From the NCBI GenBank assembly GCA_964433975.1, contig CAYSSS010000001.1:78257-142256 (forward strand): a stretch of 64,000 bases of DNA, written 5' to 3'. Shown in pieces: positions 4,179 to 43,828 of this stretch (the stretch's first letter is position 1; each line of letters starts with the position of its first letter). The position numbers and the translations under genes are program-made. The notes under the pieces were generated by a model. The model worked only from the letters and a program-made list of their open reading frames with translations, ran no database searches and was not told where the DNA came from. This DNA is from an uncultured Planctomycetia bacterium. Lineage in GTDB: Bacteria; Omnitrophota; Gorgyraeia; 2-01-FULL-45-10.

Positions 4179-5765
4179 TTATATTCTGGGAATATCGGCG
4201 TTCTATAATGATTCCGCCGCCGCGCTGCTTAAAGACGGCGAGATAATAGCTGCGGCCCAGGAAGAACGCTTTACGCGTAAAAAGCACGACCCAAGTTTTC
4301 CCAAAAATGCAATATCATATTGCTTGCGCGAAGCAGGTATCGGCAAGGCAGATCTTGATCTAATGGTATTTCATGATGGCAGCTATAAAAAAGACGTAAA
4401 AAAAAACTAAAATTTCGCGGCAAGCAGCTATTTTGCAAACATCACTACGCTCAGGCGGCAAGCGCTTTTTATCCGTCCCCATTCAATAAAGCCGCGATAC
4501 TTGTAGTTGATGGATCAAATGCTCAGGTAGCGGCAGCTTTTGGCAGTGGCACAGACAATTCAATAAAAATTCACTCCTCTATAAAATTCCCGAATTCCAT
4601 AGGGTTGCTATATTCCGTATTTACGCATTATTGCGGATTCAATCCCGATGCTGATGAGTATAAGTTAATGGGGTTGGCTCCTTATGGCAAGCCGGTTTAT
4701 GTTGACCTGATTATGGAGAAGCTTATTAAGCTGAGAATCGACGGTACTTATCGTATAAATTCGAATTACTTTACTTTCCGGGCGAAGCATAAAAAATCCA
4801 ATAAGAAGTTCACAGATCTCTTCGGCGGCCCCCCAAGAAAAAAAGATGACGAGATAGAAAAAAAACATAAGGACCTCGCGCGTTCTGTCCAAGCCGTCAC
4901 GGAGATTGCTTTGATGAACATGGTGAATCGCTTGTACGGGAAAACAAGGCTGGAAAACCTTTGTATGTCAGGTGAAGTGGCGCATAATTGCGTTGCGAAT
5001 GGTAGAATATTAAGGGAAGGGCCTTTTAAGAGGGTGTGGATACAGCCAGCGCCTTCCAGCGCTGGGTGCGCTCTCGGGGCAGCATTTTTAGGTTGGCATG
5101 AATACATGGGCAAGCTCCGAAAAGTCAGCAGGGCCAGAGATTTGCAGAAAGCGAGCCTTCTGGGCCCATCGTTCTCCGATGAAGAAATAGAAAGCTATTT
5201 AGAAGAAAATAATATAAAATATCAAAAATTGGCGAGAGCGGCCCTTTTAGCAAAAGTTGCCGGTTTTCTGGCTGACCAAAGAATAGTTGGGTGGTTCCAG
5301 GGCAGGATGGAGTTCGGCCCCCGCGCTCTGGGGAACCGTAGTATTCTGGCGGATCCCAGGTCAAAAGATATGCGCGATATTATTAATTCAAAAATCAAAT
5401 TCAGGGAAAGTTTCAGGCCATTTGCGCCAAGCGTGCTTCTGGAAAAATCACGGAACTTCTTTGATCTGGAATACGAAAGCCCATACATGCTTTTTGTGTC
5501 AACGGTTAAAAGGAGCGGATTTCCGGCCATAACACATGTTGACGGCTCAGCTAGGGTGCAAACAGTAAAGCATGAAGACAACCCTCTTTTTTATGATTTA
5601 ATAGGGCAGTTTTATAAAGACCACGGTTGCCCCATGGTTATAAATACATCTTTTAACAGGATGGGGGAGCCGATAGTCTGCACGCCTGAGGATGCTTACG
5701 GATGTTTTATGAATACCGAAATGGATTATTTAGTTATGGGTTCATTTATTATTGGAAAGGTTTAG
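4171..5765 (+). pseudogene. NodU/CmcH-family carbamoyltransferase split by a frameshift at an A9 homopolymer (4398-4406). It is either a phase-variable or inactivated gene, or a homopolymer sequencing error.
   Basis: ORF 4171-4410 encodes the family N-terminus (MPDYILGISAFYNDSAAALLKDGEIIAAAQEERFTRKKHD..DLDLMVFHDGS). The adjacent frame continues without a gap with LKFRGKQLFCKHHYAQAASAFYPSPFNKAAILVVDGS..EYKLMGLAPYGKP..., running into the annotated ORF 4605-5765, which carries the C-terminal NodU motifs (GRMEFGPRALGNRSIL, NTSFN). A single +1 change (A10) in the A-run would restore one ~530 aa ORF. Confidence 0.6.
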
Positions 5766-7491
5766 TATGAGAACAATAGAAAAAATTGTTGTCGCAGTAT
5801 TGCTTCTATCATTTCTAATAGGCGGATTATATTATGCCGCCACGAATTCCATAACGTCCGATGAAAAAACGCATATGGCGGTAGGGTATATGAACCTGCG
5901 CTTTCATGATTACAGGTTCAATATCGAGCATCCGCCTCTCGTTAAACAGCTCGCTGCGCTGCCGCTTTTATTCCTGAAGCTGAATTTTCCTTTTGATGTT
6001 TACAGCGTATCGGTCCCGGACGATATCGTAAAGATCCAGAACTTATTCCTGTTCAAGCTCGGGAACAACCTCGATTTTATGCTCTTTCTCTCCCGCATAC
6101 CGAATCTACTCATAGCCCTTATTTTAGGGTTCTTCATATACCTGTACTCAAGAAGGCTCAACGGCACATTCGCCGGGCTGATCTCATTGTCGTTATTCGT
6201 ATTCTCACCCATATTCTTAGCCCACTCCTCTTTGGTCACCATGGATACTACTATAACCTGCTTCTATTTCGCGGCTATCTATTTTTTGATGAGGTATTTT
6301 GAAACGGAAAAAGAGGGATTTTTGATCGGTGTGGCGCTCTTTACGGGATTAAGCTTTATGTCGAAGTTCAGCGGCCTGCTTTTGATACCGGTAATTTATT
6401 TACTTATTTTCATGAGGAGTTTATACCCGGTCCAGGAACCGAAAAAAATTACTTTGAAGAAGTGGATAGTAAACCTGGTCATATTTTTGCCTTTTCTGTT
6501 ATTTGCCGCATCTTATAAGAAGTCTTTCAGACTAATACTTCCGGCCCTCGCCATATACGCCATCTCTTATCTCTTTTATAACAAGAAGACTCTCTTCTCA
6601 AAGATAAATTTTGTAGGTAGGTCGCTACTCTTCATCATGGTAGTGGCGTTTGTCATGGTAATACTTGATTATACCGACTATTCATGGTTCCCGTTTCATA
6701 GCGCTACAAAGGCTTATTTCAAAGGCTTTGCCTATTTTGAGGGTCACGCGCAATATGGGCAGGAGTCTTATCTATTGGGGGCCAGCTCAAAGGCAACGGG
6801 GTGGTGGTATTATTTTCCTCTCGCTATTTTATTCAAGGAGCCATTTATTACCTCAATATTCCTCTTCCTGGGGGTAATAGGGTTATGCATAAAAAGAGAG
6901 AAGATATTAACTAAAGCCGTTCTTGTGATACCGGCTTTCGTATATCTTTTTATAGCGATGTTCATCAACAATTTGAACATAGGCATCCGCCATATATTGC
7001 CGGTATATCCGTTTTTGTTTGTCATGGCCGGTTACAGCGTATCCATTATAAGAAACTCCAGGGCGGTTAAATATCTTTTATCTCTGTTGGTCATAATATT
7101 AGCCGTGGATGTGCTAAGTTCGTATCCTGCCCATCTTTCGTATTTTAACAGACTGATAGGGGGGTATAAAGATGGTTATAAGTACCTTGGTGATTCAAAT
7201 ATAGCCTGGGGTCAGGACTGGAAGAGGTTAAAAGGATACGTTGAAAAGCATAATATAGCCACAATAGGTGCGGACGGAGCTTTCAGCTATGATAAAGTGT
7301 GCGATTATTATCGTATACCGTATAGGTATCTAACGAAAGATGAAGAATTGCGTCCGAGGGAAGGATATTATGTTATCGAGACTACCGCTTTCCCGGCCAA
7401 AAGAATAAAATGGCTGGATAAGATAAAGCCTGTTGAATGGGTGGGAGGATCCTTGCTGATATATAATATTACAAAGGAAGATGCCAAATGA
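5752..7491 (+). CDS. GT-C fold membrane glycosyltransferase, ArnT/PMT_2-like (polyprenyl-phosphate-sugar dependent).
   Basis: 579 aa polytopic. The first periplasmic loop has a D-E motif (ITSDEKTH) followed by HPPL (EHPPLVKQLAALPL), as in ArnT/PMT-family enzymes. It is a paralog of the 19538-21205 protein, sharing the C-terminal motif YFN..IGG...GYKYL.DSN..WGQD. Confidence 0.65.
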   Translation: MERFSMRTIEKIVVAVLLLSFLIGGLYYAATNSITSDEKTHMAVGYMNLRFHDYRFNIEHPPLVKQLAALPLLFLKLNFPFDVYSVSVPDDIVKIQNLFLFKLGNNLDFMLFLSRIPNLLIALILGFFIYLYSRRLNGTFAGLISLSLFVFSPIFLAHSSLVTMDTTITCFYFAAIYFLMRYFETEKEGFLIGVALFTGLSFMSKFSGLLLIPVIYLLIFMRSLYPVQEPKKITLKKWIVNLVIFLPFLLFAASYKKSFRLILPALAIYAISYLFYNKKTLFSKINFVGRSLLFIMVVAFVMVILDYTDYSWFPFHSATKAYFKGFAYFEGHAQYGQESYLLGASSKATGWWYYFPLAILFKEPFITSIFLFLGVIGLCIKREKILTKAVLVIPAFVYLFIAMFINNLNIGIRHILPVYPFLFVMAGYSVSIIRNSRAVKYLLSLLVIILAVDVLSSYPAHLSYFNRLIGGYKDGYKYLGDSNIAWGQDWKRLKGYVEKHNIATIGADGAFSYDKVCDYYRIPYRYLTKDEELRPREGYYVIETTAFPAKRIKWLDKIKPVEWVGGSLLIYNITKEDAK

Positions 7492-8795
7492 AGGTTTGTC
7501 TCATACATCCGCCGCAGCCCAATTCACTGGACGATAGGCTCGATATCCCGCTTGGGCAGCTATATCTGGCCACCGTGCTAAAGGAAGCGGGCTACGAAAC
7601 CAGGGTAGTTGACCTCTCTTCCGTGCCAATGGAGCGTTGGGCCGACCTCATCGGATGGGCGGATGTCTACGGCTTCACGGTGTATACTCCGTCGTATTAT
7701 ATATGCAAAGAGATACTGAAGCTTGCCAAGCAGAATAACCCCCGCGCCATAAGCGTCGCCGGAGGCGCGCATCCATCCGCTCTTCCGGAAGAGACTTTAA
7801 AAGATTTTGATTATGTAGTTATCGGCGAGGGGGAATTTGCCATGCGTGATCTAGTCGATAACTTAGCGAAGGCCAGGCCGATGGAGTCCAGGATCATCAG
7901 GTATCCTCTCATCGCGAATTTAGATGAACTGCCATATCCAGACCTTGACTTGATCGACATACATTCATACCATAGAAAGGTGGATGGTCAGCCGAGCTTG
8001 AGCTTTGTTACGAGCCGGGGGTGCCCCAATACGTGTGCGTTCTGCTGTAACTTCATGTTCGGCAAAAAGATCAGGTTCAGGCACCTTGATAACGTTGTCA
8101 ACGAGTTATCGTCGATAAAATCGAAATATGGCGTGAGGAATTTTATTTTTTATGACGATACGATGACCCTGGACAAAAACCGGGTTAAAGAGATGTCTGA
8201 GAAGTTTAAGCGGCTTGACATACGTTTCCGGGCTAATGGCACAGTAAAGGTGAATGATCCGGAAGTTTATGAGGATCTTTACGTCGCGGGCTGCAGGAAT
8301 ATCGCGTTTGGCGTTGAGACCGGCTCTCAGGAATTACTGCGCAAGATGAAGAAGCACACAACGGTAGACCAGATAAAAAAAGCTGTTAAAAACGCCAAGG
8401 CCGCCGGATTAATAGTTAAAGTATTCCTCATAGTCGGCTTTCCCGGAGAGACCTATCAGACCATACAGGAGACCGCCGATCTGATGCTTGAGTGCCGGCC
8501 GAACCAATATACGCTCTTTAACTTCGTCCCGTTTCCCGGCTGTGATGTTTGGCACAATCCCAAGAATTACGGCGTTACCTATTTTGAAAAGAACTACGAG
8601 CAGTACTTCAACATAGCCGGGTACCAGGAGGGAGGGCTCACGGTAGATACGGAGACTATGAAGAGGGCCGATGTCAAAGATATGAGGGAAAAACTGCTCG
8701 AATCCCTGTGCCGGTTAGACTGGTCCGGTGACGTACAGAATTACCAGTATAAGCTGCAACCTAAATACACCCCCCACACCCGCCAGTCCCCATAA
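7488..8795 (+). CDS. B12-binding-domain radical SAM enzyme (class B radical SAM, candidate C-methyltransferase).
   Basis: The N-terminus MKVCLIHPPQP...LATVLKEAGYE is typical of the cobalamin-binding domain. The CxxxCxxC cluster is at TSRGCPNTCAFCC. Length is 435 aa. Confidence 0.8.
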   Translation: MKVCLIHPPQPNSLDDRLDIPLGQLYLATVLKEAGYETRVVDLSSVPMERWADLIGWADVYGFTVYTPSYYICKEILKLAKQNNPRAISVAGGAHPSALPEETLKDFDYVVIGEGEFAMRDLVDNLAKARPMESRIIRYPLIANLDELPYPDLDLIDIHSYHRKVDGQPSLSFVTSRGCPNTCAFCCNFMFGKKIRFRHLDNVVNELSSIKSKYGVRNFIFYDDTMTLDKNRVKEMSEKFKRLDIRFRANGTVKVNDPEVYEDLYVAGCRNIAFGVETGSQELLRKMKKHTTVDQIKKAVKNAKAAGLIVKVFLIVGFPGETYQTIQETADLMLECRPNQYTLFNFVPFPGCDVWHNPKNYGVTYFEKNYEQYFNIAGYQEGGLTVDTETMKRADVKDMREKLLESLCRLDWSGDVQNYQYKLQPKYTPHTRQSP

Positions 8796-8868
8796 AACTA
8801 AATAATCCGTAGAAATACACTCCCCATAATGATATACTACTAGGCTACAAGCAAAGGAGACTAAGAAT

Positions 8869-9843
8869 ATGAAGAGAGCCGTTATAACGGGCATAACAGG
8901 CCAGGATGGATCATATATGGCCGAATTTTTGGTTAAAAAAGGCTATGAGGTTCATGGCCTGGTAAGGCGGGTTGCTCTGGAGGACCCGGAACACAGGCTG
9001 TGGAGAATAAGACACCTTTTAGGCAAGATCAAGATACACGCGGCTTCGCTCGAAAGCTACGCGAGTTTATTCAATATAATAGAAAAAATACAGCCGCACG
9101 AATGCTATCATCTGGCCGCCCAGACGTTTGTCAGCTATTCCTTCGAAGACGAATTCTCTACCATAAATACCAATATAAACGGCACTCACTATGTGCTGTC
9201 GGCTATAAAACAGAGAGCCCCTAAATGCAGGTTCTACTTCGCCGCTTCCAGCGAGATGTTCGGCAGCGTGAAAAAAACGCCGCAGAACGAGTTGACGCCT
9301 TTTCACCCGCGCTCCCCGTACGGTATTTCAAAACTTGCCGGGTTTGAGCTGACCAGAAATTATCGCGAAGCTTATAATCTATTTGCCTGCAATGGTATAT
9401 GTTTTAACCATGAAAGTCCGACCAGAGGGTTTGAGTTCGTTTCAAGAAAGATCTCGTACGCCGTAGCGGAGATAAAATTAGGCTTATCTAAAAAACTGCC
9501 TCTGGGGAACCTTAAAGCCAAGAGAGATTGGGGCTTCGCCGGCGATTATGTAAAAGCCATGTGGCTCATGCTGCAGAGCGATAGAGCGGACGATTATGTA
9601 GTCGCGACGGGTGAAACGCATACGGTCAGAGAATTCGCGGAACTTGCCTTCGATCATTTGAAACTTGACTGGAAAAAGTACGTGGTAATCGACAAGGAGC
9701 TGTACAGGCCCGCCGAGGTCAATATCCTGGAAGGGGATTACAGTAAGGCAAAAAAGGACCTGGGATGGAAACCTTTGATCAGGTTCCCGGAATTAGTCAA
9801 GATGATGGTGGATGCGGATCTGAAGCGGTTAAAAAGCAAGTAG
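8869..9843 (+). CDS. gmd: GDP-mannose 4,6-dehydratase.
   Basis: The N-terminus MKRAVITGITGQDGSYMAEFLVKKGYEVHGLVRR is the Gmd signature. An RBS, AAGGAG, lies 8 nt upstream. Confidence 0.85.
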   Translation: MKRAVITGITGQDGSYMAEFLVKKGYEVHGLVRRVALEDPEHRLWRIRHLLGKIKIHAASLESYASLFNIIEKIQPHECYHLAAQTFVSYSFEDEFSTINTNINGTHYVLSAIKQRAPKCRFYFAASSEMFGSVKKTPQNELTPFHPRSPYGISKLAGFELTRNYREAYNLFACNGICFNHESPTRGFEFVSRKISYAVAEIKLGLSKKLPLGNLKAKRDWGFAGDYVKAMWLMLQSDRADDYVVATGETHTVREFAELAFDHLKLDWKKYVVIDKELYRPAEVNILEGDYSKAKKDLGWKPLIRFPELVKMMVDADLKRLKSK

Positions 9844-9858
9844 AGAATCATATAAGAC

Positions 9859-10557
9859 ATGGTCTCCATAGTTTTACCGACCTATAATGAAAGCGAAAAC
9901 ATAGTAACTCTCATCGACGCGTTATCCCGCAATATAAAAGAGCCTCTCGAGGTGATCGTCGTAGATGACGACTCTCCCGACATGACCTGGAGGGTTGCCG
10001 AGGAGCACAAGGCTAACGGGGTAAGGGTTATCCGGCGCAATGAAAGAGGCTTGCCTTCGGCAATAGAGAGGGGCTTAAAAGAATCTAAAGGAGATATAGT
10101 GGGGTGGATGGACGCCGACATGAGCATGCCGGCATCCGCGCTGCCGGAGATGTTAAAGAGTCTCGATCAATATGATATTGCGATCGGGTCGAGGTATGCC
10201 CGAGGCGGTAAAGACGCCAGGGGGGCATTCAGAGTAGTAACGAGCAGGATAATAAATTGGTTCGCTCAAGTTATGCTCGGGTTCGATATAAGAGATTATG
10301 ACAGCGGTTTCATAGTATTTAAAAAGAATGTATTGCAGAAGGTCCCGTTTCCTTCCAAAGGCGGATACGGGGACTATTTTATAGAATTTGTTTTTAAATG
10401 CAAAAAAGCGGGATATAAAATAAAGGAGATTCCCTACACCTTTCAGGATAGAAAGAAGGGGACATCCAAAACCGCCGCCAGCCTTTCGGGATTCTTTACG
10501 CTGGGATTAGGGTATTTAAAACGGATAGTCCGCATAAGATTTGCCGGGTCAAAATAA
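9859..10557 (+). CDS. GT2 polyprenyl-phosphate sugar synthase (DPM1/ArnC/GtrB-like).
   Basis: IVLPTYNESENI and VVDDDSPD motifs. The protein is short (232 aa) and soluble-type, like Dpm1. Confidence 0.8.
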   Translation: MVSIVLPTYNESENIVTLIDALSRNIKEPLEVIVVDDDSPDMTWRVAEEHKANGVRVIRRNERGLPSAIERGLKESKGDIVGWMDADMSMPASALPEMLKSLDQYDIAIGSRYARGGKDARGAFRVVTSRIINWFAQVMLGFDIRDYDSGFIVFKKNVLQKVPFPSKGGYGDYFIEFVFKCKKAGYKIKEIPYTFQDRKKGTSKTAASLSGFFTLGLGYLKRIVRIRFAGSK

Positions 10558-10574
10558 TCCAAGGAGATACTGAC

Positions 10575-10991
10575 ATGGTCGAATATATAAAATCAAAGAA
10601 AGGCAGCCTGATAGCGATAATCATGCCTCAGCATATAGATACAAAGGGGGCCACATTCTTTACTCCTCCGGAATTTTCCCAGCAGGTGGGGTTATTAAGG
10701 CACCGCAAAGGGTCAAAAGTAAGACCGCATGTCCACAAGCTGGTGAAGAGAAGGATAGAGAGAACGCAGGAAGTCCTCCATATTAAAAAAGGCAAAGTCG
10801 CGGTCTTTTTGTATGACGAGAAAGAAAAGTACCTTGGAACGCGCCTACTGAAGAAAGGCGATACGATACTTCTGGCAAGCGGAGGCCATGGGATAGAGGT
10901 CCTGGAAAACAGCTTGATCCTCGAGATCAAGCAGGGCCCGTATGCCGGAGTGGATGACAAGGAATATTTAAAAGAGAAAAAGGCGCGATGA
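10575..10991 (+). CDS. Small cupin-fold protein, possibly an NDP-hexose ketoisomerase or epimerase (WxcM/FdtA/RmlC-like).
   Basis: 138 aa with cupin motifs (PHVHK...E....G and GDTILLASGGHGIEV). It sits between gmd and a DegT aminotransferase. I cannot resolve its function further from the sequence. Confidence 0.35.
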   Translation: MVEYIKSKKGSLIAIIMPQHIDTKGATFFTPPEFSQQVGLLRHRKGSKVRPHVHKLVKRRIERTQEVLHIKKGKVAVFLYDEKEKYLGTRLLKKGDTILLASGGHGIEVLENSLILEIKQGPYAGVDDKEYLKEKKAR

Positions 10992-12118
10992 TCCCCGTAA
11001 ACGAACCTTTAATAGGAAAAGAAGAGCTAAAAAATATCACCGATTGCGTGAAGTCCGGATGGATATCTTCGAAGGGGAGGTACATAAAAGAGTTTGAAGT
11101 GAAATTTGCCGAATTTTGCGGTGTCCGGTATGGTATTTCCACGACGAGTGGAACAACGGCGCTGCATCTTGCCCTTGCTTGTTTGGGGATAAGAAAAGGC
11201 GACGAAGTCATCATGCCCACCTTCACGATGATCGCGACAGCTTACGCCGTCATGTATCTTGGCGCCAAACCGGTATTTATCGACAGCGAAGAGAGGACAT
11301 GGAATATGGATGTGTCCAAGGTTGAAGAATCGATCAACCCCAAGACCAAAGTGCTGCTTCCCGTGCATATATACGGCCATCCTGTCGATATGGATCCCAT
11401 CATGGCCTTGGCAAAAAAACATGATCTTTTTGTAATAGAGGACGCCGCTGAGGCTCATGGCGCGAAATATAAGGGCAAGGTTTGCGGCTCGATGGGCGAT
11501 ATCAATTGTTTTTCGTTCTACGCGAACAAGGTGATAACGACGGGCGAGGGGGGTATGGTGGTTACCGATGACAAAAAATTATCCGAAAAGGCGAGGCTGC
11601 TGAAAGACCTTTCCCATTCCCCGAAACAGCGCTTTTTGCATACAGCGCTTGCTTATAACTATCGTATGACAAATATGCAGGCGGCGATAGGGCTTGCCCA
11701 GACCGAAAAGGCAAGAGCTCTTATTGAGAAAAAAAGGCGCATAGCCGGCCTCTATAATGATAACCTGAAAGATATTGAAGGGTTAAGATTGCCGATAGAG
11801 GAGAAGTGGGCGAAGAGCGTATACTGGATGTATTCAATTCTGGTTGAAAAAGATTTCGGACTGGATAGAGACCGATTTAGGTCAGAATTATTGAAAGAAG
11901 GGGTCGAGACGCGTTCATTCTTCGTTCCTATGCACCGGCAGCCGGTGATACAAAAGATGGGGCTCGCGGGCAAAAAGAGGAGATATCCCGTTTCCGATTA
12001 TATTTCCGACCATGGCCTCTATCTGCCTACCGGACTTGCTCTTAAACATAAAGATGTATTGCTTGTCTGCGAAAAGATAAGAAAGATACAGAAGAGATAT
12101 GCGTCCAGAACGCGATAA
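10988..12118 (+). CDS. DegT/DnrJ/EryC1/StrS-family PLP-dependent sugar aminotransferase (candidate GDP-perosamine synthase).
   Basis: PLP-lysine region FSFYANKVITTGEGGMVVTDD. Length 376 aa. Located downstream of gmd. Confidence 0.85.
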   Translation: MIPVNEPLIGKEELKNITDCVKSGWISSKGRYIKEFEVKFAEFCGVRYGISTTSGTTALHLALACLGIRKGDEVIMPTFTMIATAYAVMYLGAKPVFIDSEERTWNMDVSKVEESINPKTKVLLPVHIYGHPVDMDPIMALAKKHDLFVIEDAAEAHGAKYKGKVCGSMGDINCFSFYANKVITTGEGGMVVTDDKKLSEKARLLKDLSHSPKQRFLHTALAYNYRMTNMQAAIGLAQTEKARALIEKKRRIAGLYNDNLKDIEGLRLPIEEKWAKSVYWMYSILVEKDFGLDRDRFRSELLKEGVETRSFFVPMHRQPVIQKMGLAGKKRRYPVSDYISDHGLYLPTGLALKHKDVLLVCEKIRKIQKRYASRTR

Positions 12119-13508: not shown

Positions 13509-14929
13509 CAGAAGTGAAAATACGCGAGGCTATTTTGAAGGATCGTGAGGCTATTTTGAAGGATAGGGTATTCTGGCTGCTTCTGGTATTTGCCGCTCTT
13601 TATATACTGGGTAATATAGGCACGGGAAGCCTTTCGACGTTCGACGAGGCGATTTACGCCAATATATCAAAAAACATCGTCAAAACAGGCGACTGGCTGG
13701 TAATGCGCCAGGGTGTTAAGCCATGGTTCGATAAGCCGCCCCTATATATGTGGTGTACGGCCGTTCTTTACAAAATATTGGGAGTGAGCGAATTTTCTAC
13801 AAGGCTGACATCGGGCATACTTGGCATAGCGGCGGTTATGATCCTGTATCTCTTCGCAAAAAAAATGACAGATAAGATCACGGCCTCTCTGGCCGGCCTG
13901 ATACTCTTGGCTCTGCCGCACTATATCCATTTTTCCAAGATGGGTATGATGGATGTCCCGATAACCTTTTTTACGCTGCTTACGCTTTATCTCTTTTGGC
14001 TTGGAATGGAGAGGGAAAAATATCTATTTTATTCAGGGGCGATACTCTGTGTAGCATATTTAATGAAAGGCTTTGCGGCATTTTTGCCTTTATTCATAAT
14101 CATCGTTTATGCGGTACTATCCAAAAATGTCCGCTTTCTGCTTAAGCGGCAATTCCTGCTTGGCACGGCGCTGGCTCTTTCAGTGATCTTTGTATGGCAT
14201 CTGGCACAACTTATGCTCTTGGGGCCGACCGCCCTTAAAGAATATTTTGGTTTTCATATATTTCAAAGGGCGACTTCCGTGCTCGAGGGACACAAAGGGG
14301 GATTCGATTACTATATACGGGTAATTTTTAAGAAGAACATCCCCTGGTCAATTTTGATCTTCTCCTCTATTTTTTACGCGGCTTATAGATATTTTAAAGA
14401 CAAGGACAAAAGGCTGTTGTTTTTGTTGAGCTGGGTATTTGTCACATTCTTTCTGTATAGCGCGGTAAGGACCAAATTGCAATGGTATATCATGCCTATA
14501 TATCCGGCCCTCGCGCTATTGTCGGCGTTTTTGCTGAAGGGATTTTTAAGAAAGAATCTCATTTATATCGCGTTTGTCGTTATCCTGGCAGGGATGCTGG
14601 TCCAGGTCCCGCTATCGTGGGCATTTAGGCTGGACTATACCCCTGATATAAAGAATGTTTCGCAGATAGGGAGAGGTCTTCATACAGACGGAAATGATAT
14701 ATATATGATAAGCGGGAACGACTCCGAGATATTCTATTACGACTTCGCTATAGAGCTTGATAAAGAAGTATATCGGTCCCTTATGTCGCAAGGCAAGGGG
14801 AAGATCTATTGCATAATACTGCCGGGCATGTTTAAAGATAAGAAGGAAGATTATAATTTTGACGCGGAGCCAATTTATGAGTCAAACAGGACTTCCTTTT
14901 ACAGAATAAAATTTAAGGACAGGAAATAA
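13505..14929 (+). CDS. GT-C fold membrane glycosyltransferase, ArnT/PMT_2-like.
   Basis: GSLSTFDEAIYANISKNIVKTGDWLV...FDKPPLYMW matches the ArnT D-E...KPPL loop signature. The ATGA start/stop overlap with the upstream gene indicates translational coupling. Confidence 0.7.
   Translation: MTEVKIREAILKDREAILKDRVFWLLLVFAALYILGNIGTGSLSTFDEAIYANISKNIVKTGDWLVMRQGVKPWFDKPPLYMWCTAVLYKILGVSEFSTRLTSGILGIAAVMILYLFAKKMTDKITASLAGLILLALPHYIHFSKMGMMDVPITFFTLLTLYLFWLGMEREKYLFYSGAILCVAYLMKGFAAFLPLFIIIVYAVLSKNVRFLLKRQFLLGTALALSVIFVWHLAQLMLLGPTALKEYFGFHIFQRATSVLEGHKGGFDYYIRVIFKKNIPWSILIFSSIFYAAYRYFKDKDKRLLFLLSWVFVTFFLYSAVRTKLQWYIMPIYPALALLSAFLLKGFLRKNLIYIAFVVILAGMLVQVPLSWAFRLDYTPDIKNVSQIGRGLHTDGNDIYMISGNDSEIFYYDFAIELDKEVYRSLMSQGKGKIYCIILPGMFKDKKEDYNFDAEPIYESNRTSFYRIKFKDRK
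13523..13564 (+). repeat. Perfect-but-one tandem duplication of a 21 bp unit (cgcgaggctattttgaaggat, then cgtgaggctattttgaaggat) within the 5' end of the GT-C gene.
   Basis: Read directly from the sequence. It encodes REAILKD REAILKD in frame. Confidence 0.85.
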
Positions 14930-14931
14930 AT

Positions 14932-15645
14932 ATGTCTGTTTACTTATCGATAATAATACCTGCTTATAACGAAGAAAAGAGGATAGGCCCGACCCTTTCC
15001 AATGTGTGCGGCTTTTTTAAAACAAAAAATTATGAGTACGAAGTTATTCTTGTCGATGACGGCAGCAGCGACAGGACCGTCTCGGAAGCCGAAGATAGCG
15101 AGCTGGCGAATACAGGTAAGCTGAAGATAGTCAAAAACAGCGTGAATAAGGGTAAGGGGTTCTCCGTAAAGAACGGCATATTAAAGAGCTTAGGTGAGTA
15201 CGTGCTCTTCAGCGACGCGGACTTATCTACGCCTATAGAGGAGGCGGATAAGCTCTTCGATCACATAGGCAAAGGTTACGATATAGTGATCGGCTCGCGC
15301 AGTATCGCCGGATCCAACGTAAAGGTACGCCAGCCTTTCTATAGGGAGAAGATGGGCAGGATATTCAATTATTTTATAAATAGCCTCTTGATGGGCGGGT
15401 TTATCGATACGCAATGCGGTTTTAAGCTTTTCAAGGGCAGTGTGGCCAGGCAGATCGGTAAAGAGCTTACAATAAACGGTTTTTGTTTTGATGTCGAGAT
15501 GCTCTATCTAGCCAGGAAAGAGGGCTATAAGATCGCGGAGGTAGGTATCACGTGGGAGAATTCACCTCAAAGCAAGGTGCGCGTCTTTAGCAGCTCTCTT
15601 TCTATGTTTATAGATCTTCTAAAGATAAAGAGAAGGCACGGATGA
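14932..15645 (+). CDS. GT2 polyprenyl-phosphate sugar synthase (DPM1-like).
   Basis: IIIPAYNEEKRIGPTL and LVDDGSSD motifs. 237 aa. Confidence 0.8.
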   Translation: MSVYLSIIIPAYNEEKRIGPTLSNVCGFFKTKNYEYEVILVDDGSSDRTVSEAEDSELANTGKLKIVKNSVNKGKGFSVKNGILKSLGEYVLFSDADLSTPIEEADKLFDHIGKGYDIVIGSRSIAGSNVKVRQPFYREKMGRIFNYFINSLLMGGFIDTQCGFKLFKGSVARQIGKELTINGFCFDVEMLYLARKEGYKIAEVGITWENSPQSKVRVFSSSLSMFIDLLKIKRRHG

Positions 15646-17363
15646 GATTTCATAAATCAAATTACCCGATATTAGTCATCATAGCCATAGGATTGTCTCT
15701 TCGTATATGGGGAATCAATTTTGGTCTGCCATACCAATTTCACCAGGATGAACCGATCATAGTCAATCATGCCCTCGCATACGGGACGGGGGACCTAAAC
15801 CCGCATTTTTTCATAATTCCACCACTCGCTTCTTATCTACTGTTCGGTTTTTATGTCCTTTATTTTTTTATAGGCAGCATATCCGGCATATTCACAGGCG
15901 TGGAACAGTTCTCCTTAAGTTTCTTCAGAGATCCAACGCCTTTTTATATTATCGGGAGGGTTATCCTTGGCGTATTGCCGAGTATCTTGAGCGTATATTT
16001 AATATATAAGCTGGCGATAAGGTTTTTTTCAAAGAAAGCTGCGCTTTACGCGTCGCTTATCATGGCCGTTACATTTTTAAACGTTATCAACGCGCATTAC
16101 GCGTATGCCGACAACCTGCTCGTATTTTTTGTGCTACTGGCCTATCTGGCAATGTCGATGCTTATGGACAGTCCAAAAATATCCAATTATGTTATTGCGG
16201 GGATATTAACCGGTCTGGCTATTGCCACGAAATATAATGCCGTATTGCTTGTTGTGCCATTGCTTGTTGCTCACATCGTAACTTTCCGTCATTGCGAGGA
16301 GTCCCGCCGCTTTTTGGCGGGACGACGAAGCAATCTCATTAACCTAAATTTGCTGATATTCGGCGCAACGGCCGTCTTTACGTTTATCATATGCAATCCC
16401 TACTCTCTTCTCGATGCAGGCTTCTTCTGGGAGTCACTGACCCACAGGATAAGGGGCGGCTACAGGGGGATGGGACATCACCTTACATATTCATTATTTG
16501 AAGGCGCTGGAGCTGCTCCGGTCATATTGGGAATCATAGGATTGGGCTGGCTCTTAAAAAAAGATCTTAAGAAAGGGATCTTTCTCATCTCTTTTCCGGC
16601 TATTTTTTATCTGCACCTTATTTTCAAAAGCCAGTCGTTCCCGAGGTATGCGCTGCCCGTGATCCCTTTTTTGGCCATCGGACTATCGTTTTTACTCTTC
16701 GGTCTATACGAAAGACTGAAGACGAACGCTTTAAAGGCGGCCATAGTCGCCGTCTCGTTGATTCTTGTTATGCCTACGGCCGCGAAGTCTATCAAGGCGG
16801 ACATGCTCTTTGCGGGCAAAGATACGCGTATAGAGGCAAAGGAGTGGATGGAGAAGAATATACGGCCCCGGACGCGTATAGCGCTTGCCCACACGTTCTT
16901 CAGTCCTCCGCTTGAACAGACGACGGAACAGTTGAAAGAGAAAGAGGGCATACTTTCAGGGCAGCCGGAACTGAAGGATCTGAAGAGCAAAAAACTGGAA
17001 CTTCTCATAAAAGGCCGTAAGGCCCCCATTACATATCAGGTATACTACTTAAGGGGTGACAATGAAGCTCCCGGCCAATTCCTGAATTTCTGGCCGGTGA
17101 TAGAGAATTCAGTGAACGATCTACGGAAAAATGATATCACTTACGTAATCTTTAATAATACGGACCCGTCCGAAGCGTTAAAAGAGTTGCAAAAGGAAGC
17201 GGGTAGTATATTTAAGCCGGTTGCCGTATTCAGCCCTTATGTGGATGATAAATTCAGGCTTCCATACGACCCGATAGAGCTTACATGCTTGCCCGCGGGG
17301 ACTAAAGAGCTCTTCTCAAGGCGCGCCGCGGGGCCATATCTGGTCATCTATAAAATAAAATGA
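15642..17363 (+). CDS. GT-C fold membrane glycosyltransferase, ArnT/PMT_2-like. It carries an in-frame hairpin repeat insertion.
   Basis: 573 aa polytopic, with the loop YQFHQDEPIIVNHALAYGTGDLNPHFFIIPPL (D-E...PPL). Confidence 0.6.
   Translation: MRFHKSNYPILVIIAIGLSLRIWGINFGLPYQFHQDEPIIVNHALAYGTGDLNPHFFIIPPLASYLLFGFYVLYFFIGSISGIFTGVEQFSLSFFRDPTPFYIIGRVILGVLPSILSVYLIYKLAIRFFSKKAALYASLIMAVTFLNVINAHYAYADNLLVFFVLLAYLAMSMLMDSPKISNYVIAGILTGLAIATKYNAVLLVVPLLVAHIVTFRHCEESRRFLAGRRSNLINLNLLIFGATAVFTFIICNPYSLLDAGFFWESLTHRIRGGYRGMGHHLTYSLFEGAGAAPVILGIIGLGWLLKKDLKKGIFLISFPAIFYLHLIFKSQSFPRYALPVIPFLAIGLSFLLFGLYERLKTNALKAAIVAVSLILVMPTAAKSIKADMLFAGKDTRIEAKEWMEKNIRPRTRIALAHTFFSPPLEQTTEQLKEKEGILSGQPELKDLKSKKLELLIKGRKAPITYQVYYLRGDNEAPGQFLNFWPVIENSVNDLRKNDITYVIFNNTDPSEALKELQKEAGSIFKPVAVFSPYVDDKFRLPYDPIELTCLPAGTKELFSRRAAGPYLVIYKIK
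16288..16335 (+). repeat. Small MITE/RPE-like palindromic element inserted in-frame in a GT-C gene (copy 1).
   Basis: gtcattgcgaggagtcccgccgctttttggcgggacgacgaagcaatc. The hairpin is GTCCCGCC-N8-GGCGGGAC. The termini gtcattgcgaggagtcccgccg and gggacgacgaagcaatc are shared exactly with copy 2 at 20170-20237. Confidence 0.7.
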
Positions 17364-19534
17364 CGACACTTAAAAATCATATAGGGTTCGTAGCGTTTTT
17401 TTCTTTCATAATAGCGGTATTCTTATACCCCCTCATAACCATGCGGGGAGGATTTATATGGGGAGATTCATTCGTTCAATTCTATCCTTGGTCGAAGGTT
17501 TACGCCGAAAGCATAAAATCTTTTTCATTTCCCTACTGGATAAGAGCAATGGGCAGCGGATTTCCTCTCATGGCCGAAGGCCAGGTGGGAGGTTTTTATC
17601 CGCTTAATATATTGTTATTCTTTATCCTGCCGTTCAAGATCGCGTATAACTATTCGGTCGTCCTTCACTTCGTAATGGGGGGTATTTTTACTTATCTCTA
17701 CAGCCGTAAGTTGGGCGCGGATCAATCCGGCGGCAGCCTCGCTGCGCTGCTCTTCTGTTTCGGTAGCGCTTACGCCGGATGTTTTTATAATATAGTTACG
17801 CTACGCACTCTGGCGTGGTTCCCTCTGGTTCTACTACTGATAGAGCGCTATTTTGAGAAGGAAGAGCCAAGATATATATTGTTCGGCGGTGTAATACTGG
17901 GATTGCAGTTTCTTGCGGGATTCGTGCAGATGGCCGCATACAGCGCTATTTTCTATTTAGCGTATTTTATTTATAAGGCGATAATAGAGAAGAAGAGCCT
18001 ATGGAAGATCGCAAGGTCTTTATCAGTCTTTTTTACCACAGCCATTTTGATAGCATTGCCTCAACTTTTGCTTACCTATCAATTGGTCGGATTATCGAAC
18101 AGGGAAGGGGCCACAGCGGGATTTGCGCTATGGGGATCGGTCTTTCCTTCGGGATTATTGGGAACCGTCTTTCCTTACTCCTTCTCTTTTAAGGGAGATC
18201 TTTATGTAGGCATATTGAGCCTTTTATTTGTTATATTCAGTGCCTACTCACTAAAAAAATATAAAAATACAAGGCCGCTTGTGTTGATCCTGATACTGTC
18301 TCTCTTCATGGCTCTCGGGAGGTACAACCCTATTTATTTTGCGTTAATAAAGATCACCAAATTATATATCTTCAGGAATCCGTCCAAGTTCTTATTTTTC
18401 GCCTCCTTTTCATTATCGGTCCTGGCCGGGATAGGGTTGACCCGGTATTTTAATGCCAAAGATGCCGCACCAAAACGAAAAAGTAATTTTTTATTTTTCA
18501 TTACTCTAACCACAGCGGGAATTGCGTTTTTTGCGGTAAAACTTTCACTGATCTTGTTCAGGCGCAATATTATCAGTTTTGGAGATTATTTTGTACGCAA
18601 TTTTATATACAATAAACCGCATCACCGTTACAGCCTGGAATTTTATATAGATAAGTTCAGGATGTCGTATGACGCGATATTGGGCAATTTTTCCTTCTCG
18701 AGCGTTTTCGTGATTTTGTCATGGGTTGTGTTTATTGCAGCGTTTTTATTCTGTTTGATACGTTTAGGGAGAAAGTCGAAGTATATTGCTATCGCGTTGA
18801 TATTTATCGATATCTTTATATTCAGTCTTTACGGAAAAGGTTTTAGCCATAATATAAAGCCATTTTCATATTTGGCTGCGGAAGATAGGGTCTTTCTGGA
18901 ATACCTTAAGAGGGACCGCGATATATATAGAGTGCTCCCATTTAATATAAGGTCCGGAAGATTGCCCAATTGGGCCATGCCTAATTCGAATATCATTCAT
19001 GGAATAGATAGCGTCGCGTGCTACACGCCGCTTGTAACCAGGGCCTATAGAGATAAGCTTCTTGATCTTGGGGCAATAGATGATTCTCTGGGGTTTGTTA
19101 ACGCCAAAGAAGGCGCGATAAGCGCCGATACCCAGATGCTGCGGTTACTGAACGTTAAGTATATAATATCGCCGGATGAGTTGAATGATCAAGTGCTGGA
19201 AAAGGTATATGCGGATAACAGTCTATTCCTGTACAGGATGAAGGGGTCTTATCCACGGCTATTCTTTTCCTCTAGTATAGCGCCAGATGTAAGGCAGTCG
19301 CCTTTAGCGAGCACTAAAATATTAACATATAGAGATGGATTTATCGAAGCTGAGATAACGGCATATGATGATGGATTTGTAGTCTTTTCTGAAAACTACT
19401 ATCCGGGATGGCGCGTGTTTATCGACGGGAAAAAGAAAGATATAATAAAAGTAATGGATATCCTGCAGGCCGTTGCGATAGACAAAGGATATCATAAAGT
19501 TTTGTTCATCTACAGACCACGGTTTTTAGGATAA
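17360..19534 (+). CDS. YfhO-family GT-C membrane glycosyltransferase.
   Basis: 724 aa. The N-terminus ...GGFIWGDSFVQFYPWSKVYAESIKSFSFPYWIRAMGSGFPLMAEGQVGGFYPLN resembles the YfhO signature (…QHYPF…WNPY…G.P). There are many TM helices and a large C-terminal domain. Confidence 0.6.
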   Translation: MTTLKNHIGFVAFFSFIIAVFLYPLITMRGGFIWGDSFVQFYPWSKVYAESIKSFSFPYWIRAMGSGFPLMAEGQVGGFYPLNILLFFILPFKIAYNYSVVLHFVMGGIFTYLYSRKLGADQSGGSLAALLFCFGSAYAGCFYNIVTLRTLAWFPLVLLLIERYFEKEEPRYILFGGVILGLQFLAGFVQMAAYSAIFYLAYFIYKAIIEKKSLWKIARSLSVFFTTAILIALPQLLLTYQLVGLSNREGATAGFALWGSVFPSGLLGTVFPYSFSFKGDLYVGILSLLFVIFSAYSLKKYKNTRPLVLILILSLFMALGRYNPIYFALIKITKLYIFRNPSKFLFFASFSLSVLAGIGLTRYFNAKDAAPKRKSNFLFFITLTTAGIAFFAVKLSLILFRRNIISFGDYFVRNFIYNKPHHRYSLEFYIDKFRMSYDAILGNFSFSSVFVILSWVVFIAAFLFCLIRLGRKSKYIAIALIFIDIFIFSLYGKGFSHNIKPFSYLAAEDRVFLEYLKRDRDIYRVLPFNIRSGRLPNWAMPNSNIIHGIDSVACYTPLVTRAYRDKLLDLGAIDDSLGFVNAKEGAISADTQMLRLLNVKYIISPDELNDQVLEKVYADNSLFLYRMKGSYPRLFFSSSIAPDVRQSPLASTKILTYRDGFIEAEITAYDDGFVVFSENYYPGWRVFIDGKKKDIIKVMDILQAVAIDKGYHKVLFIYRPRFLG

Positions 19535-19537
19535 ATA

Positions 19538-21205
19538 ATGAAGATAAAAATATTTGTAATAATTCTACTGTCGATATTCGCCGTATTAACGATATCGAGT
19601 ATGCGGCAAAATTCGGCTACTTGCGACGAGATAGCGCATCATATACCCGTAGGATATGTTTTATTGAATAAATGGGATTTCAAGATGGATACATCGCAAC
19701 CGCCACTGCCGCGATATATAGTAGCTTTACCGTTGAAACTATTTATGAATATAAATATGCCCGATGACAGGGCTCTTTGGAGGGTGCAAGACCGGTCTAT
19801 TTTCGGCAGGGATTTTTTCTACAAATATAATCGTGATCAGATCAAGATGGTCTTTTTTGCCAGGATGGCCGTTGTTTTTATAGGTATGTTATGCGGTCTG
19901 CTGCTATTTATATGGGCAAAGTCACTTTGGGGCGAAAGAGCCGCTCTATTTAGCCTGTTTTTTTACGCTCTTTCTCCAAATATATTGGCTCATGCCGGTC
20001 TTGCCACCACTGATATGGTAGCGACGTTTTTTATACTCCTCTCTTGTTATTCATTCTGGCTCTTCCTGAAGAATGCTTCAATCACAAATATCATATTCGC
20101 GGCTGTCTGTCTTGGGCTGGCTGAGCTCTCTAAATACACGGCCATCCTGCTTTATCCGATATTCTTACTGTCATTGCGAGGAGTCCCGCCGAAGACCCTC
20201 GACCTCGCCGAGAGGCGAGCGGGACGACGAAGCAATCCCACAATTTCAAAGTTCCTGTCCGTTATCTTTTTATCTTTGATCGTTGTGTGGGCCGCCTATG
20301 GATTTGAATTTCAACCATTACTTAAAGATTCGATGCGCCTCGATGAAAAACTTCAGATCGCACACAATATCGCTAAAAAAGTATACCCGCATATCAGCCC
20401 GGCGGCAATTGACCGCCTGGACGATTTTTTACTGAAGGTCCCGGTGCCGTTGGGCAGCCACATTCTCGGGATAATGGGCGTGTTTCGTCACGGTTACGAA
20501 GGGCATAGTACTTATTTTTTGGGGAGGTGGTCAAGTCACGGCGATCCGCTCTATTTTTTAGTCGCTTTTTTGATAAAGACACCCATACCGCTAATCATTT
20601 TTTTGCTCATTGGTATTTTCATATTTTTGAAGCAGAGATCGCAGATGGGAGAGAGGTTTATTTTTATCGTAGCGGCCGTATTCTTTGTGGCGTCATCTTT
20701 AAGCGGGCTGAAGTTGGGGTTAAGGCACATATTGCCCCTTTACCCGTTCTGTTTCATGATATGCGGCGGTGCCGTAGTGCTATTGAAGAAGAAATATGTT
20801 AATATACTATTGTATAGTCTAATGGCATGGTATGCGTTTATATCGGTCAAAACATGGCCGCATTATTTGGGCTACTTTAATGAAGCGATAGGCGGTCCGG
20901 CAAACGGATATAAATACCTCAGGGATTCAAACGTTGATTGGGGGCAGGACCTGCCGTCACTATCGCGGTATATGGAGAAAAACGGTATAAAAGAGATAGC
21001 GCTTGAATATTTCGGACAGGCGGACCCGGTTGTTTACGGCGTTCATTACAGAAAGTTTATGCCGGATGAATTTGAAAAGCCGCATGACGCGGTTTATGCC
21101 GTAAGCGCCCAATATCTGGAGGGTGTCAAATGGACGAAGGATCATAAACCTGCGGCAGCCGCAGGCTATTCTATATTTATCTATGATTTTGCCAAGGAAA
21201 AATAG
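19538..21205 (+). CDS. GT-C fold membrane glycosyltransferase, ArnT/PMT_2-like. It is a paralog of 5752-7491 and carries an in-frame hairpin repeat insertion.
   Basis: ATCDEIAHHIPVGY...QPPLPRYIVALPL, and the C-terminal YFNEAIGGPANGYKYLRDSNVDWGQD, shared with the 5752 gene. Confidence 0.65.
   Translation: MKIKIFVIILLSIFAVLTISSMRQNSATCDEIAHHIPVGYVLLNKWDFKMDTSQPPLPRYIVALPLKLFMNINMPDDRALWRVQDRSIFGRDFFYKYNRDQIKMVFFARMAVVFIGMLCGLLLFIWAKSLWGERAALFSLFFYALSPNILAHAGLATTDMVATFFILLSCYSFWLFLKNASITNIIFAAVCLGLAELSKYTAILLYPIFLLSLRGVPPKTLDLAERRAGRRSNPTISKFLSVIFLSLIVVWAAYGFEFQPLLKDSMRLDEKLQIAHNIAKKVYPHISPAAIDRLDDFLLKVPVPLGSHILGIMGVFRHGYEGHSTYFLGRWSSHGDPLYFLVAFLIKTPIPLIIFLLIGIFIFLKQRSQMGERFIFIVAAVFFVASSLSGLKLGLRHILPLYPFCFMICGGAVVLLKKKYVNILLYSLMAWYAFISVKTWPHYLGYFNEAIGGPANGYKYLRDSNVDWGQDLPSLSRYMEKNGIKEIALEYFGQADPVVYGVHYRKFMPDEFEKPHDAVYAVSAQYLEGVKWTKDHKPAAAAGYSIFIYDFAKEK
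20170..20237 (+). repeat. Small MITE/RPE-like palindromic element inserted in-frame in a GT-C gene (copy 2, the longer variant).
   Basis: gtcattgcgaggagtcccgccgaagaccctcgacctcgccgagaggcgagcgggacgacgaagcaatc. It has the same 22 bp and 17 bp termini as copy 1. Relative to the element it is read in a different frame (SLRGVPP... versus HCEESRR...). Confidence 0.7.
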
Positions 21206-21229
21206 GAGAGAAATAGATCAGGCTATTTT

Positions 21230-26789: not shown

Positions 26790-26812
26790 AAGTCAAAAAG
26801 AAAGGTGTGATC

Positions 26813-27052
26813 ATGGAAATAAACCCGCATGAGGTGTACACCACCGAAGAGGCTCAGCGCATTCTTAAGATAAGCCCTTCTACTACAATGAGGCTGATTA
26901 AGAAAGGGATGATACGAACTGCTAAGGTCGGCAAACAATATCGTATTCTTGGTAAGGAGCTATTGAGGGTGGTCTCTCCTAAGCTTGAGGATAAGGTTGG
27001 CAGGATCTATAATAAAGGACGGAAGTGGGTCCACGAGGGCATTGAGGAGTAA
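26813..27052 (+). CDS. Small helix-turn-helix DNA-binding protein (excisionase/MerR-like HTH_17 family). Putative transcriptional regulator.
   Basis: EVYTTEEAQRILKISPSTTMRLIKKGMIRTAKVGKQYRILGKELL matches the excisionase-family HTH pattern. The six-frame track starts at the GTG at 26807, but the ATG at 26813 has the better RBS. Confidence 0.65.
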   Translation: MEINPHEVYTTEEAQRILKISPSTTMRLIKKGMIRTAKVGKQYRILGKELLRVVSPKLEDKVGRIYNKGRKWVHEGIEE

Positions 27053-43824: not shown

Positions 43825-43828
43825 CATT

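Follow-up and report, generated by a model that had tools for sequence, protein, structure and literature searches.

The window analyzed here, a stretch of 64,000 nucleotides (nt) from the genome assembly of an uncultured Omnitrophota bacterium (GenBank GCA_964433975.1, contig CAYSSS010000001.1), encodes seven polytopic membrane glycosyltransferases (GTs) of the GT-C fold, interleaved with four GT2 enzymes that resemble polyprenyl-phosphate sugar synthases. Three neighbouring GT-C genes, termed PMTc, YfhO and PMTd, form a trio that is conserved across the Omnitrophota, and this is the main new result of our analysis. The array is a lineage-specific conserved core trio with variable accessory modules. 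From sequence comparison we regard periplasmic glycosylation by these GT2 and GT-C enzymes, dependent on lipid-phosphate-linked sugars, as the best explanation for the locus, and hold it with good confidence.

All eleven open reading frames (ORFs) named in the initial annotation were found in the ORF list at exactly the coordinates given there, all on the plus strand. Of the eleven, eight fall into the range assigned to the array, 5752-21205 (six for GT-Cs, two for GT2s), and three lie outside it, at the positions 22801, 48791 and 55738 that had also been given. Six GT-C genes are found within 13 consecutive genes (six in 15.5 kb, seven in the window). This density, together with a gene order that is conserved in dozens of related contigs, argues against a chance arrangement. 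Nearly all genes of the window are closely packed in one co-directional run on the plus strand with uniform composition (GC content ∼0.44), and from 5752 to 25576 neighbouring start and stop codons overlap or are at most 30 nt apart, which is an operon-like packing. The seven GT-C genes are the following (aa, amino acids; TM, transmembrane helix).

5752..7491, plus strand: PMTa, PMT_2-type GT-C, 579 aa, ∼10 TM; Pfam PMT_2 7e-16; SDE...HPPL motif after TM1, conserved in orthologs
12099..13508, plus strand: GT87/MptA_B-like GT-C, 469 aa; profile and fold evidence; D106 invariant
13505..14929, plus strand: PMTb, the most ArnT-like GT-C, 474 aa; Pfam PMT_2 3e-22; PDB 5EZM (ArnT) E=1.4e-26
15642..17363, plus strand: PMTc, PMT_2-type GT-C, 573 aa; HQDE...PPL motif; C-terminal soluble domain of ∼190 aa; first member of the trio
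17360..19534, plus strand: YfhO-family GT-C, 724 aa; Pfam YfhO 1.7e-21; D36 invariant in loop 1; centre of the trio
19538..21205, plus strand: PMTd, PMT_2-type GT-C, 555 aa; CDE...PPL motif; D..DWGQ motif conserved at the C-terminal end; completes the trio
55738..57306, plus strand: PMTe, distant PMT_2-type GT-C, 522 aa; Pfam PMT_2 2.1e-8; NCBIfam LA_3751/LA_3752 family 1.5e-15

Pfam and NCBIfam profiles, matches to solved structures and, for two of the proteins, structure models together place the seven membrane proteins among the GT-Cs and in the families that had been claimed for them. Neither these profiles nor the PDB and fold searches classified any of the seven as a transporter or as a member of an unrelated family. 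Each contains 8-11 hydrophobic spans, with 8-10 TM in the PMT_2 members. The five PMT_2 proteins exceed the Pfam gathering score for this family (PF13231, CAZy GT39/GT83 type; 26.1 bits) with 59.3 (PMTa), 79.8 (PMTb), 58.8 (PMTc), 42.9 (PMTd) and 35.0 bits (PMTe). The YfhO protein reaches 76.8 bits against a gathering score of 28.5 for PF09586. No solved structure related to it by sequence was found with either the single sequence or a family profile as query. The 28 best PDB matches in a fold search with its AlphaFold model (pLDDT 85.8) were nevertheless all GT-C enzymes, namely ArnT, PglB/STT3/AglB, EmbA/B/C, AftA, AftD and DPY19. This model also contains a C-terminal beta-sandwich domain at approximately residues 599-718.

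The assignment of the GT87-like protein (12099) required additional evidence, since its score of 24.5 bits falls just below the gathering score of 25 for GT87 (DUF2029), and the NCBIfam model for MptA gave only 41 bits relative to a cut-off of 439. We uphold this sub-threshold call for three reasons. First, a match to PF26314 (MptA_B_family) is precomputed for a protein identical to the 12099 product. Second, a profile built from 34 GT87-like homologs matches GPI mannosyltransferase 1 with E=1e-9. Third, the best PDB folds for its AlphaFold model (pLDDT 91.4, pTM 0.92) were GPI mannosyltransferase I (GPI-MT-I) with Dol-P-Man, followed by PimE, ALG6, ArnT and STT3, with TM-scores of 0.39-0.53 for GPI-MT-I, PimE and ALG6.

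The four GT2 proteins all pass Pfam Glycos_transf_2, and their best NCBIfam and PDB relatives are lipid-phosphate-sugar synthases, in agreement with the Dpm1/GtrB/ArnC kind that had been proposed for them.

9859..10557, plus strand: GT2a, resembling dolichol-phosphate mannose synthase (DPMS), 232 aa, no TM; PDB 5MLZ (P. furiosus DPMS) E=7.7e-34 over residues 2-207
14932..15645, plus strand: GT2b, Dpm1-like, 237 aa, no TM; PDB 5MLZ 1.9e-19, GtrB 1.2e-14, ArnC 1.2e-12
22801..23532, plus strand: GT2c, Dpm1-like synthase, 243 aa, no TM; Pfam, NCBIfam and subgroup motifs; 43% identical to GT2b
48791..49738, plus strand: GT2d, ArnC/GtrB/AglJ-type, 315 aa; PDB ArnC over the full length 4.6e-13; NCBIfam AglJ 3.7e-29

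The top NCBIfam matches of the four are Dol-P-hexose transferase, AglJ, ArnC, PgfS and PpgS, with Dol-P-hexose transferase/AglJ ranking first for GT2a and PgfS for GT2b; GtrB 5EKP is among the solved relatives. PxYNE, DDxSxD, DxD, GSR and D..GF motifs are common to GT2a-d, and the DAD motif of GT2b lines up with that of DPMS. GT2d carries two C-terminal TM helices (residues 241-259 and 270-288), and the absence of TM helices from GT2a-c is shared with PpgS. We also weighed the unrelated GT2 at 62179 as a candidate for a fifth synthase but discarded it, as the alignment shows the subgroup motifs to be absent from it.

Residues typical of active GT-Cs are retained throughout the array. Every PMT_2 paralog has an acidic motif right after TM1 (SDE, FDE, QDE or CDE) followed by PP(L), which in PMTe takes the variant form GD..ED. 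The alignment of PMTb with C. metallidurans ArnT (E=1.4e-26) pairs FDEAIYA with PDEGRYA, FDKPP with FEKPP and WYIMP with GYIVP. The D-E pair of PMTc is kept in 27 of 29 ortholog sequences, the two exceptions being alignment gaps; D30 of PMTd is present in all 23 orthologs, and D47, E48, D76 and K77 of PMTb in all seven. An invariant aspartate was likewise found in the family alignments of the YfhO protein (D36) and of the GT87-like protein (D106, where the first outer-loop helix starts; 34 sequences). This conservation of loop-1 residues argues against dead paralogs. All seven GT-C ORFs are intact, and motif conservation at an ortholog identity of only 35-55% indicates purifying selection on what, judged by sequence, would be active enzymes. 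The N-termini of the PMT_2 proteins are rich in lysine and arginine, which fits an N-in topology with loop 1 outside.

To describe the conservation of the array, we inspected the neighbourhoods of four homologs and 43 loci from a metagenome scan and classified their ORFs against the window proteins. Synteny counts were taken among 36 distinct loci, those with enough flanking sequence being informative. A recurring gene run was observed in related loci: GT2, PMT_2, YfhO, PMT_2, (GT2) and a small HTH gene. In 22 of 26 informative loci, the gene directly upstream of YfhO is of the PMTc type, and in 15 of 20 the gene directly downstream is of the PMTd type; a small HTH_17 gene follows YfhO at a distance of at most 5 kb in 12 of 16. 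GT2b-type genes are usually found 5' of the trio and GT2c-type genes often 3', and genes for nonulosonic acids usually come after the HTH_17 gene. The presence of PMTa and PMTb, of a GT87-like gene, of additional YfhO paralogs and of radical SAM genes varies between loci. The four homolog neighbourhoods share the architecture of the window, and one of them (L003) is collinear with it from 7488 to 22801. In loci L002, L023, L035 and L043, genes for a GDP-mannose dehydratase and a DegT aminotransferase, in some cases with a carbamoyltransferase gene, directly precede the GT2b-trio unit. The hypothesis that the GT-C block is a mobile or hypervariable island found no support: its order is conserved across relatives of 44-81% identity and its composition is uniform.

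Some relatives contain additional YfhO paralogs. Locus L004 (3118-5532) encodes an extra, very divergent paralog of 804 aa a few kb upstream of the trio, and further divergent ones are found a few kb before the trio in the upstream regions of L022 and L028. Therefore, the GT-C copy number varies between Omnitrophota lineages.

The YfhO homologs make up a tight family, in which the 120 matches listed all show at least 42% identity at near-full coverage, and every organism name given by the source is Candidatus Omnitrophota or Omnitrophica, including Ca. Orphnella. The source-named GT87-like homologs are likewise all from the Omnitrophota. The source-named PMTc homologs, which include Ca. Tantalella, also belong to the Omnitrophota except for one partial match on a 2.6-kb contig labelled Margulisiibacteriota. 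A single GTDB-representative match is labelled 'uncultured Planctomycetia', likewise a member of the Planctomycetes-Verrucomicrobia-Chlamydiae (PVC) group. NCBI already annotates homologs as GT39, ArnT-family, YfhO or GT87 proteins, and in the literature on Omnitrophota glycosyltransferases, ArnT or lipopolysaccharide (LPS) we found no description of this locus.

A tandem duplication had been raised as a possible origin of the paralogs, which pairwise BLAST comparisons do not support. PMTa and PMTd are the sole GT-C pair that can be aligned over the full length, with 29% identity; the remaining pairs share at most short local similarity of no more than 27%. Because no pair exceeds 29%, we reject a recent duplication and consider the GT-C paralogs to be old. 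Among the synthases, GT2b and GT2c are 43% identical, and GT2a is ∼27% identical to either.

Multi-component transmembrane glycosylation by a GT-A enzyme, a flippase and a GT-C enzyme is an established general mechanism (PMC8035078, PMC11127046). By homology to such systems, the four GT2s would act at the cytoplasmic face and transfer a single sugar from a nucleotide sugar to polyprenyl phosphate. The resulting lipid-phosphate-sugars would then be flipped across the membrane, for which Wzx-like and LPG_synthase_TM-like proteins are candidates, and at the periplasmic face the seven GT-Cs would use them as donors for the glycosylation of an envelope glycoconjugate. The core of this machinery would be the trio of PMT_2 (15642), YfhO (17360) and PMT_2 (19538), which is translationally coupled and would receive its donors from GT2b and GT2c. 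Accessory modules would be formed by PMTa, by the GT87-like enzyme, by PMTb (ArnT-like) together with GT2a, and by a distal group of GT2d, a flippase-like protein, PMTe and a deacetylase. The count of seven additions and four donors made in the initial annotation should be read as an upper bound by homology. The genes that bear on donors, flipping and acceptor are as follows.

2018..3373, plus strand: Wzy_C / O-antigen-ligase-like membrane protein; Pfam Wzy_C 1.3e-22; NCBIfam RfaL 2.5e-11
8869..9843, plus strand: GDP-mannose 4,6-dehydratase; Pfam GDP_Man_Dehyd 7e-119
10988..12118, plus strand: DegT-family sugar aminotransferase; Pfam DegT_DnrJ_EryC1 2.6e-122; with the 8869 dehydratase a GDP-perosamine-type pair
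38072..39553, plus strand: Wzx-type (Polysacc_synt) flippase, by Pfam; candidate flippase of a lipid-linked sugar or oligosaccharide
54795..55745, plus strand: LPG_synthase_TM/flippase-like membrane protein; Pfam PF03706 4.8e-26; NCBIfam 'flippase-like domain'; its end overlaps the start of PMTe
57313..58923, plus strand: polysaccharide-deacetylase-domain protein, 536 aa; Pfam Polysacc_deac_1 1.1e-7; ArnD fold family

GDP-mannose is the probable source of one donor or more. The neighbouring dehydratase and aminotransferase genes suggest that at least one may be a 4-amino-6-deoxyhexose, possibly made from GDP-mannose in analogy to the known GDP-perosamine pathway. For the acceptor, the gene context has to be considered. 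When practically all ORFs of the window were scanned with Pfam and NCBIfam profiles, a surface-glycan supercluster became apparent. It includes a PglF-like dehydratase, the Wzy_C/RfaL-like protein, a frameshifted carbamoyltransferase, GT4 enzymes, further tailoring genes and a second gene set for a CMP-activated sugar. It also includes a set of legionaminic-acid-type nonulosonic acid genes, encoding a short-chain dehydrogenase/reductase, DegT, PglD-like, NeuB, NeuC-like, HisH/F, WbuX amidotransferase, PtmE-like and CMP-transferase proteins. ENA contig k141_168704 (295,816 bp) contains the window, and on this contig the cluster extends 3' of the window with further GT4 genes, one gene resembling GT9 heptosyltransferases and one for an initiating transferase (Bac_transf). 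Therefore, the whole one-strand locus spans more than 74 kb, and it looks LPS/O-antigen-like. This context favours an LPS or polysaccharide acceptor, most likely the nonulosonic-acid-containing one made by the rest of the cluster, although we would put the chances of this specific acceptor slightly below even.

Several points weigh against periplasmic glycosylation of this kind. The NCBIfam equivalog scores of the GT2s (38-102 bits) miss their cut-offs (325-529) so widely that no donor sugar can be named. Neither a GtrA-type flippase (profile scans; no small multi-TM ORF in the gaps) nor a GacJ-like small membrane partner for the TM-less GT2a-c was found in the window, where the small ORFs in the gaps are a WbuC cupin, the HTH_17 protein and a carbamoyltransferase fragment. 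The placement of the GT-C loops is consistent with periplasmic activity as judged from hydropathy, N-terminal charge and models only, and the acceptor proposed is a guess based on the genes nearby. Finally, three conserved GT-Cs per one or two GT2s do not fit a scheme of one pair for each decoration and may instead reflect a stepwise periplasmic assembly.

The latter consideration leads to an alternative that we regard as possible yet doubtful. The trio and the accessory GT-Cs could build or elongate an oligo- or polysaccharide from polyprenyl-phosphate monosaccharides directly on the outer face of the inner membrane, comparable to the mycobacterial Mpt/Aft/Emb enzymes that make mannan and arabinan, and thereby produce an envelope polymer specific for the Omnitrophota. 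Three translationally coupled GT-Cs of different families in fixed order, with just one or two donor synthases, would be expected in this case, and the characterized relatives of the GT87/MptA_B-like enzyme are chain-building mannosyltransferases. The C-terminal soluble domains on the YfhO protein and PMTc also have counterparts in Emb and AftD (PMC3044687). But the cluster itself can provide an acceptor polymer through its Wzx/Wzy_C/initiating-transferase pathway, which is complete, and neither a UbiA-type decaprenyl-phosphoribose synthase nor another polymer-specific marker was found in the cluster. Moreover, one synthase serves two GT-Cs in decoration systems as well, as in the case of Listeria GttA with GtlB and GttB (PMC8035078). 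A more specific version, based on the same analogy, has the trio and the TM-less Dpm1-like synthases assembling a phylum-defining polymer, possibly with amino- or C-methylated sugars, and this we think rather unlikely. If such an assembly line existed, its product would add to the surface that these nano-sized, host-associated cells show to their hosts and phages.

We also find it unlikely that the locus serves an Arn-like charge modification, in which aminotransferase or deacetylase/flippase-like modules would put cationic amino sugars on lipid A or core phosphates. This idea draws on PMTb, which is closest to ArnT and keeps the DE..(E/D)KPP motifs, and on the dehydratase and DegT genes directly upstream of GT2/GT-C genes in the window as well as in L002, L023, L035 and L043. 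It also draws on the full-length similarity of GT2d to ArnC and on the group of LPG_synthase_TM, PMTe and deacetylase genes, which resembles ArnE/F, ArnT and ArnD. The equivalog scores are far under their cut-offs, however (ArnT 99.7 versus 567 bits, ArnC ∼60 versus 529), the cluster contains no ArnA-type formyltransferase or decarboxylase, and the sugar would come from a GDP-hexose rather than from UDP-Ara4N. Such a modification would explain no more than two or three GT-Cs out of seven.

Protein O-glycosylation by some or all of the PMT_2/YfhO enzymes, directed at secreted or surface proteins such as pilins or the giant surface proteins that characterize Omnitrophota, is still less probable. 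Models for this would be Pmt with Ppm1 in actinobacteria and the Pgf system of streptococci. Pfam PMT (protein O-mannosyltransferase) indeed matches 13505, 15642, 19538 and 55738, but with weaker scores than PMT_2 every time. PgfS, the best NCBIfam match of GT2b, belongs to a protein-glycosylation system with two membrane GT partners, and many very long proteins occur in the Omnitrophota (10.64898/2026.06.07.730766). Among the proteins encoded in the locus there is no candidate acceptor, though, and the surrounding genes are of the polysaccharide/LPS type. A partly redundant or degenerate array, with several GT-C paralogs as inactive relics or scaffolds and well below seven additions, could be argued from the frameshifted carbamoyltransferase at the array edge and from the divergent loop-1 motif and weak Pfam score of PMTe, but is highly improbable given seven intact ORFs and motifs that persist in orthologs of 35-55% identity.

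The GT-C block also contains genes for tailoring enzymes and a small DNA-binding protein.

7488..8795, plus strand: rSAM1, B12-binding radical SAM protein, putative sugar C-methylase; Pfam B12-binding and Radical_SAM; 90% identical and collinear in L003
10575..10991, plus strand: WbuC-family cupin, 138 aa; NCBIfam TIGR04366 42.4 bits, cut-off 42
21230..22804, plus strand: rSAM2, B12-binding radical SAM protein; Pfam
23525..25576, plus strand: rSAM3, B12-binding radical SAM protein, 683 aa; Pfam
25808..26539, plus strand: FkbM-family methyltransferase; Pfam
26807..27052, plus strand: small HTH_17 DNA-binding protein, 81 aa; Pfam HTH_17 2.8e-12; its gene separates the GT-C block from the genes for nonulosonic acids, a position that it has in 12 of 16 loci

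Together with a further B12-radical SAM gene at 41594-43090 and an FkbM gene at 43087-43824, the cluster harbours four radical SAM and two FkbM genes. Since these are spread through the cluster and radical SAM genes recur in relatives, C-methylated or otherwise unusual sugars are suggested. The HTH_17 protein is 72-78% identical in relatives, whereas neighbouring enzymes reach just 35-55%, and the best σ70-like site of the region (11 of 12 positions) is located just upstream of its gene, at 26761-26789. A scan for promoters and terminators otherwise gave counts barely above the shuffled background, with this site as the sole standout. Possibly, the HTH_17 protein acts as a regulator dedicated to this glycan locus.

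A number of side observations concern the remaining genes. The carbamoyltransferase gene (NodU/CmcH type, 4171-5765) is frameshifted: relative to the intact 564-aa homolog of L002, residues 5-70 are encoded in one frame and 91-540 in another, with ∼20 residues lost in the window copy. An independent assembly of SRR8437217 (Logan) shows the same split. At 3366-4178, directly behind the Wzy_C/O-antigen-ligase-like gene and overlapping it, lies a gene for a cysteine protease of the papain family (Peptidase_C1, 1e-22). The region 40833-47968 contains genes for an HpcH/HpaI aldolase, the radical SAM and FkbM proteins mentioned above, a second CMP-transferase, a GFO/IDH/MocA oxidoreductase, an SIS isomerase, a 2-hydroxyacid dehydrogenase and inositol-monophosphatase-like proteins, and this block looks like a pathway to a second CMP-activated acidic sugar. 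At 52677-54801, in the middle of the cluster, we found a homolog of the RNA ligase RtcB (E=1.6e-82), for which this is an odd context, together with a weakly thymidylate-kinase-like ORF. At 58941-62176, an FkbH-domain protein (TIGR01686, 8.5e-86), a 79-aa ORF present in the ENA annotation (∼60823-61062) that may encode a carrier protein, and a weakly GNAT-like protein of 374 aa point to acyl tailoring of the glyceryl-carrier-protein type.

Omnitrophota are abundant, uncultured and often ultra-small bacteria, and to our knowledge the chemistry of their cell surface is essentially unknown. For their envelope glycan, a dense, conserved set of periplasmic GTs that probably depend on lipid carriers offers a concrete genetic marker and a starting point that can be tested. 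We know of no YfhO protein characterized outside the Firmicutes, where the family functions in teichoic acid glycosylation with C55-P-GlcNAc provided by CsbB. Our results extend this family to a conserved role in a diderm phylum. Teichoic acid is an improbable acceptor in the present case, because the host belongs to the diderms of the PVC group. What is unusual about the locus is its GT-C density, the fixed trio of three families across a phylum, the presence of the YfhO family in diderms, and the interleaved B12-radical SAM and FkbM methylases.

The array had been described as far beyond what is usually seen, which is correct in comparison with Gtr and Arn pairs but not with the mycobacterial arabinogalactan and lipoarabinomannan loci. 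The latter cluster a comparable number of GT-Cs, so that the size of the array is not unprecedented. The three-component systems, that is, GtrA/B/C, CsbB-GtcA-YfhO, GacI/J/K/L, CsdAB/CD/EF and GT136 (PMC8035078, PMC11127046), share with the window a Dpm1/GtrB-like GT2 gene adjoining a polytopic GT-C gene (PMT_2 or YfhO) with an acidic loop-1 motif, and their genes are likewise embedded in a surface polysaccharide locus. Both TM-anchored synthases (GT2d, in the style of GtrB and ArnC) and TM-less ones (GT2a-c, as GacI) have counterparts among them. Up to three GT-A/GT-C pairs per genome are found in Firmicutes (PMC8035078). The window differs from the three-component systems in having six GT-Cs in 15.5 kb and seven in total, rather than one per pair, in its phylum-wide trio of three GT-C types, in the lack of a detectable GtrA-type flippase, and in its PVC-group diderm host with methylase genes interleaved among the GT-Cs.

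Of the Arn pathway (ArnC/ArnD/ArnEF/ArnT), the window resembles individual components: PMTb aligns across the catalytic region of ArnT and GT2d over the full length of ArnC, and aminotransferase, deacetylase-fold and flippase-like genes are found nearby. In contrast to that pathway, it lacks ArnA, its precursor genes are of the GDP-mannose type, its modules are dispersed over 50 kb, and its scores remain far below the equivalog cut-offs. The genes of the distal group are contiguous or overlapping at 54795-58923, with GT2d 5 kb upstream (48791-49738), and their likeness to ArnC/ArnEF/ArnT/ArnD is one of layout only.

With the mycobacterial and corynebacterial sets, that is, Emb, Aft, Mpt and PimE with Ppm1 and decaprenylphosphoryl arabinose synthesis (PMC3229680, PMC12041299), the window has in common many clustered GT-Cs of several families with few polyprenyl-phosphate-sugar synthases, a GT87/MptA_B-like member, C-terminal soluble domains on GT-Cs, and synthases without TM helices (GT2a-c), as in Ppm1. 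It differs from them in that there is no sequence orthology, as judged by the MptA score given above, no decaprenyl-phosphoribose pathway was found in it, and it is a Wzx/Wzy-type nonulosonic-acid cluster in a diderm. Since the mechanistic class is well known and the families are already annotated publicly, the value of this locus compared with the known systems lies in its architecture and conservation rather than in a new principle.

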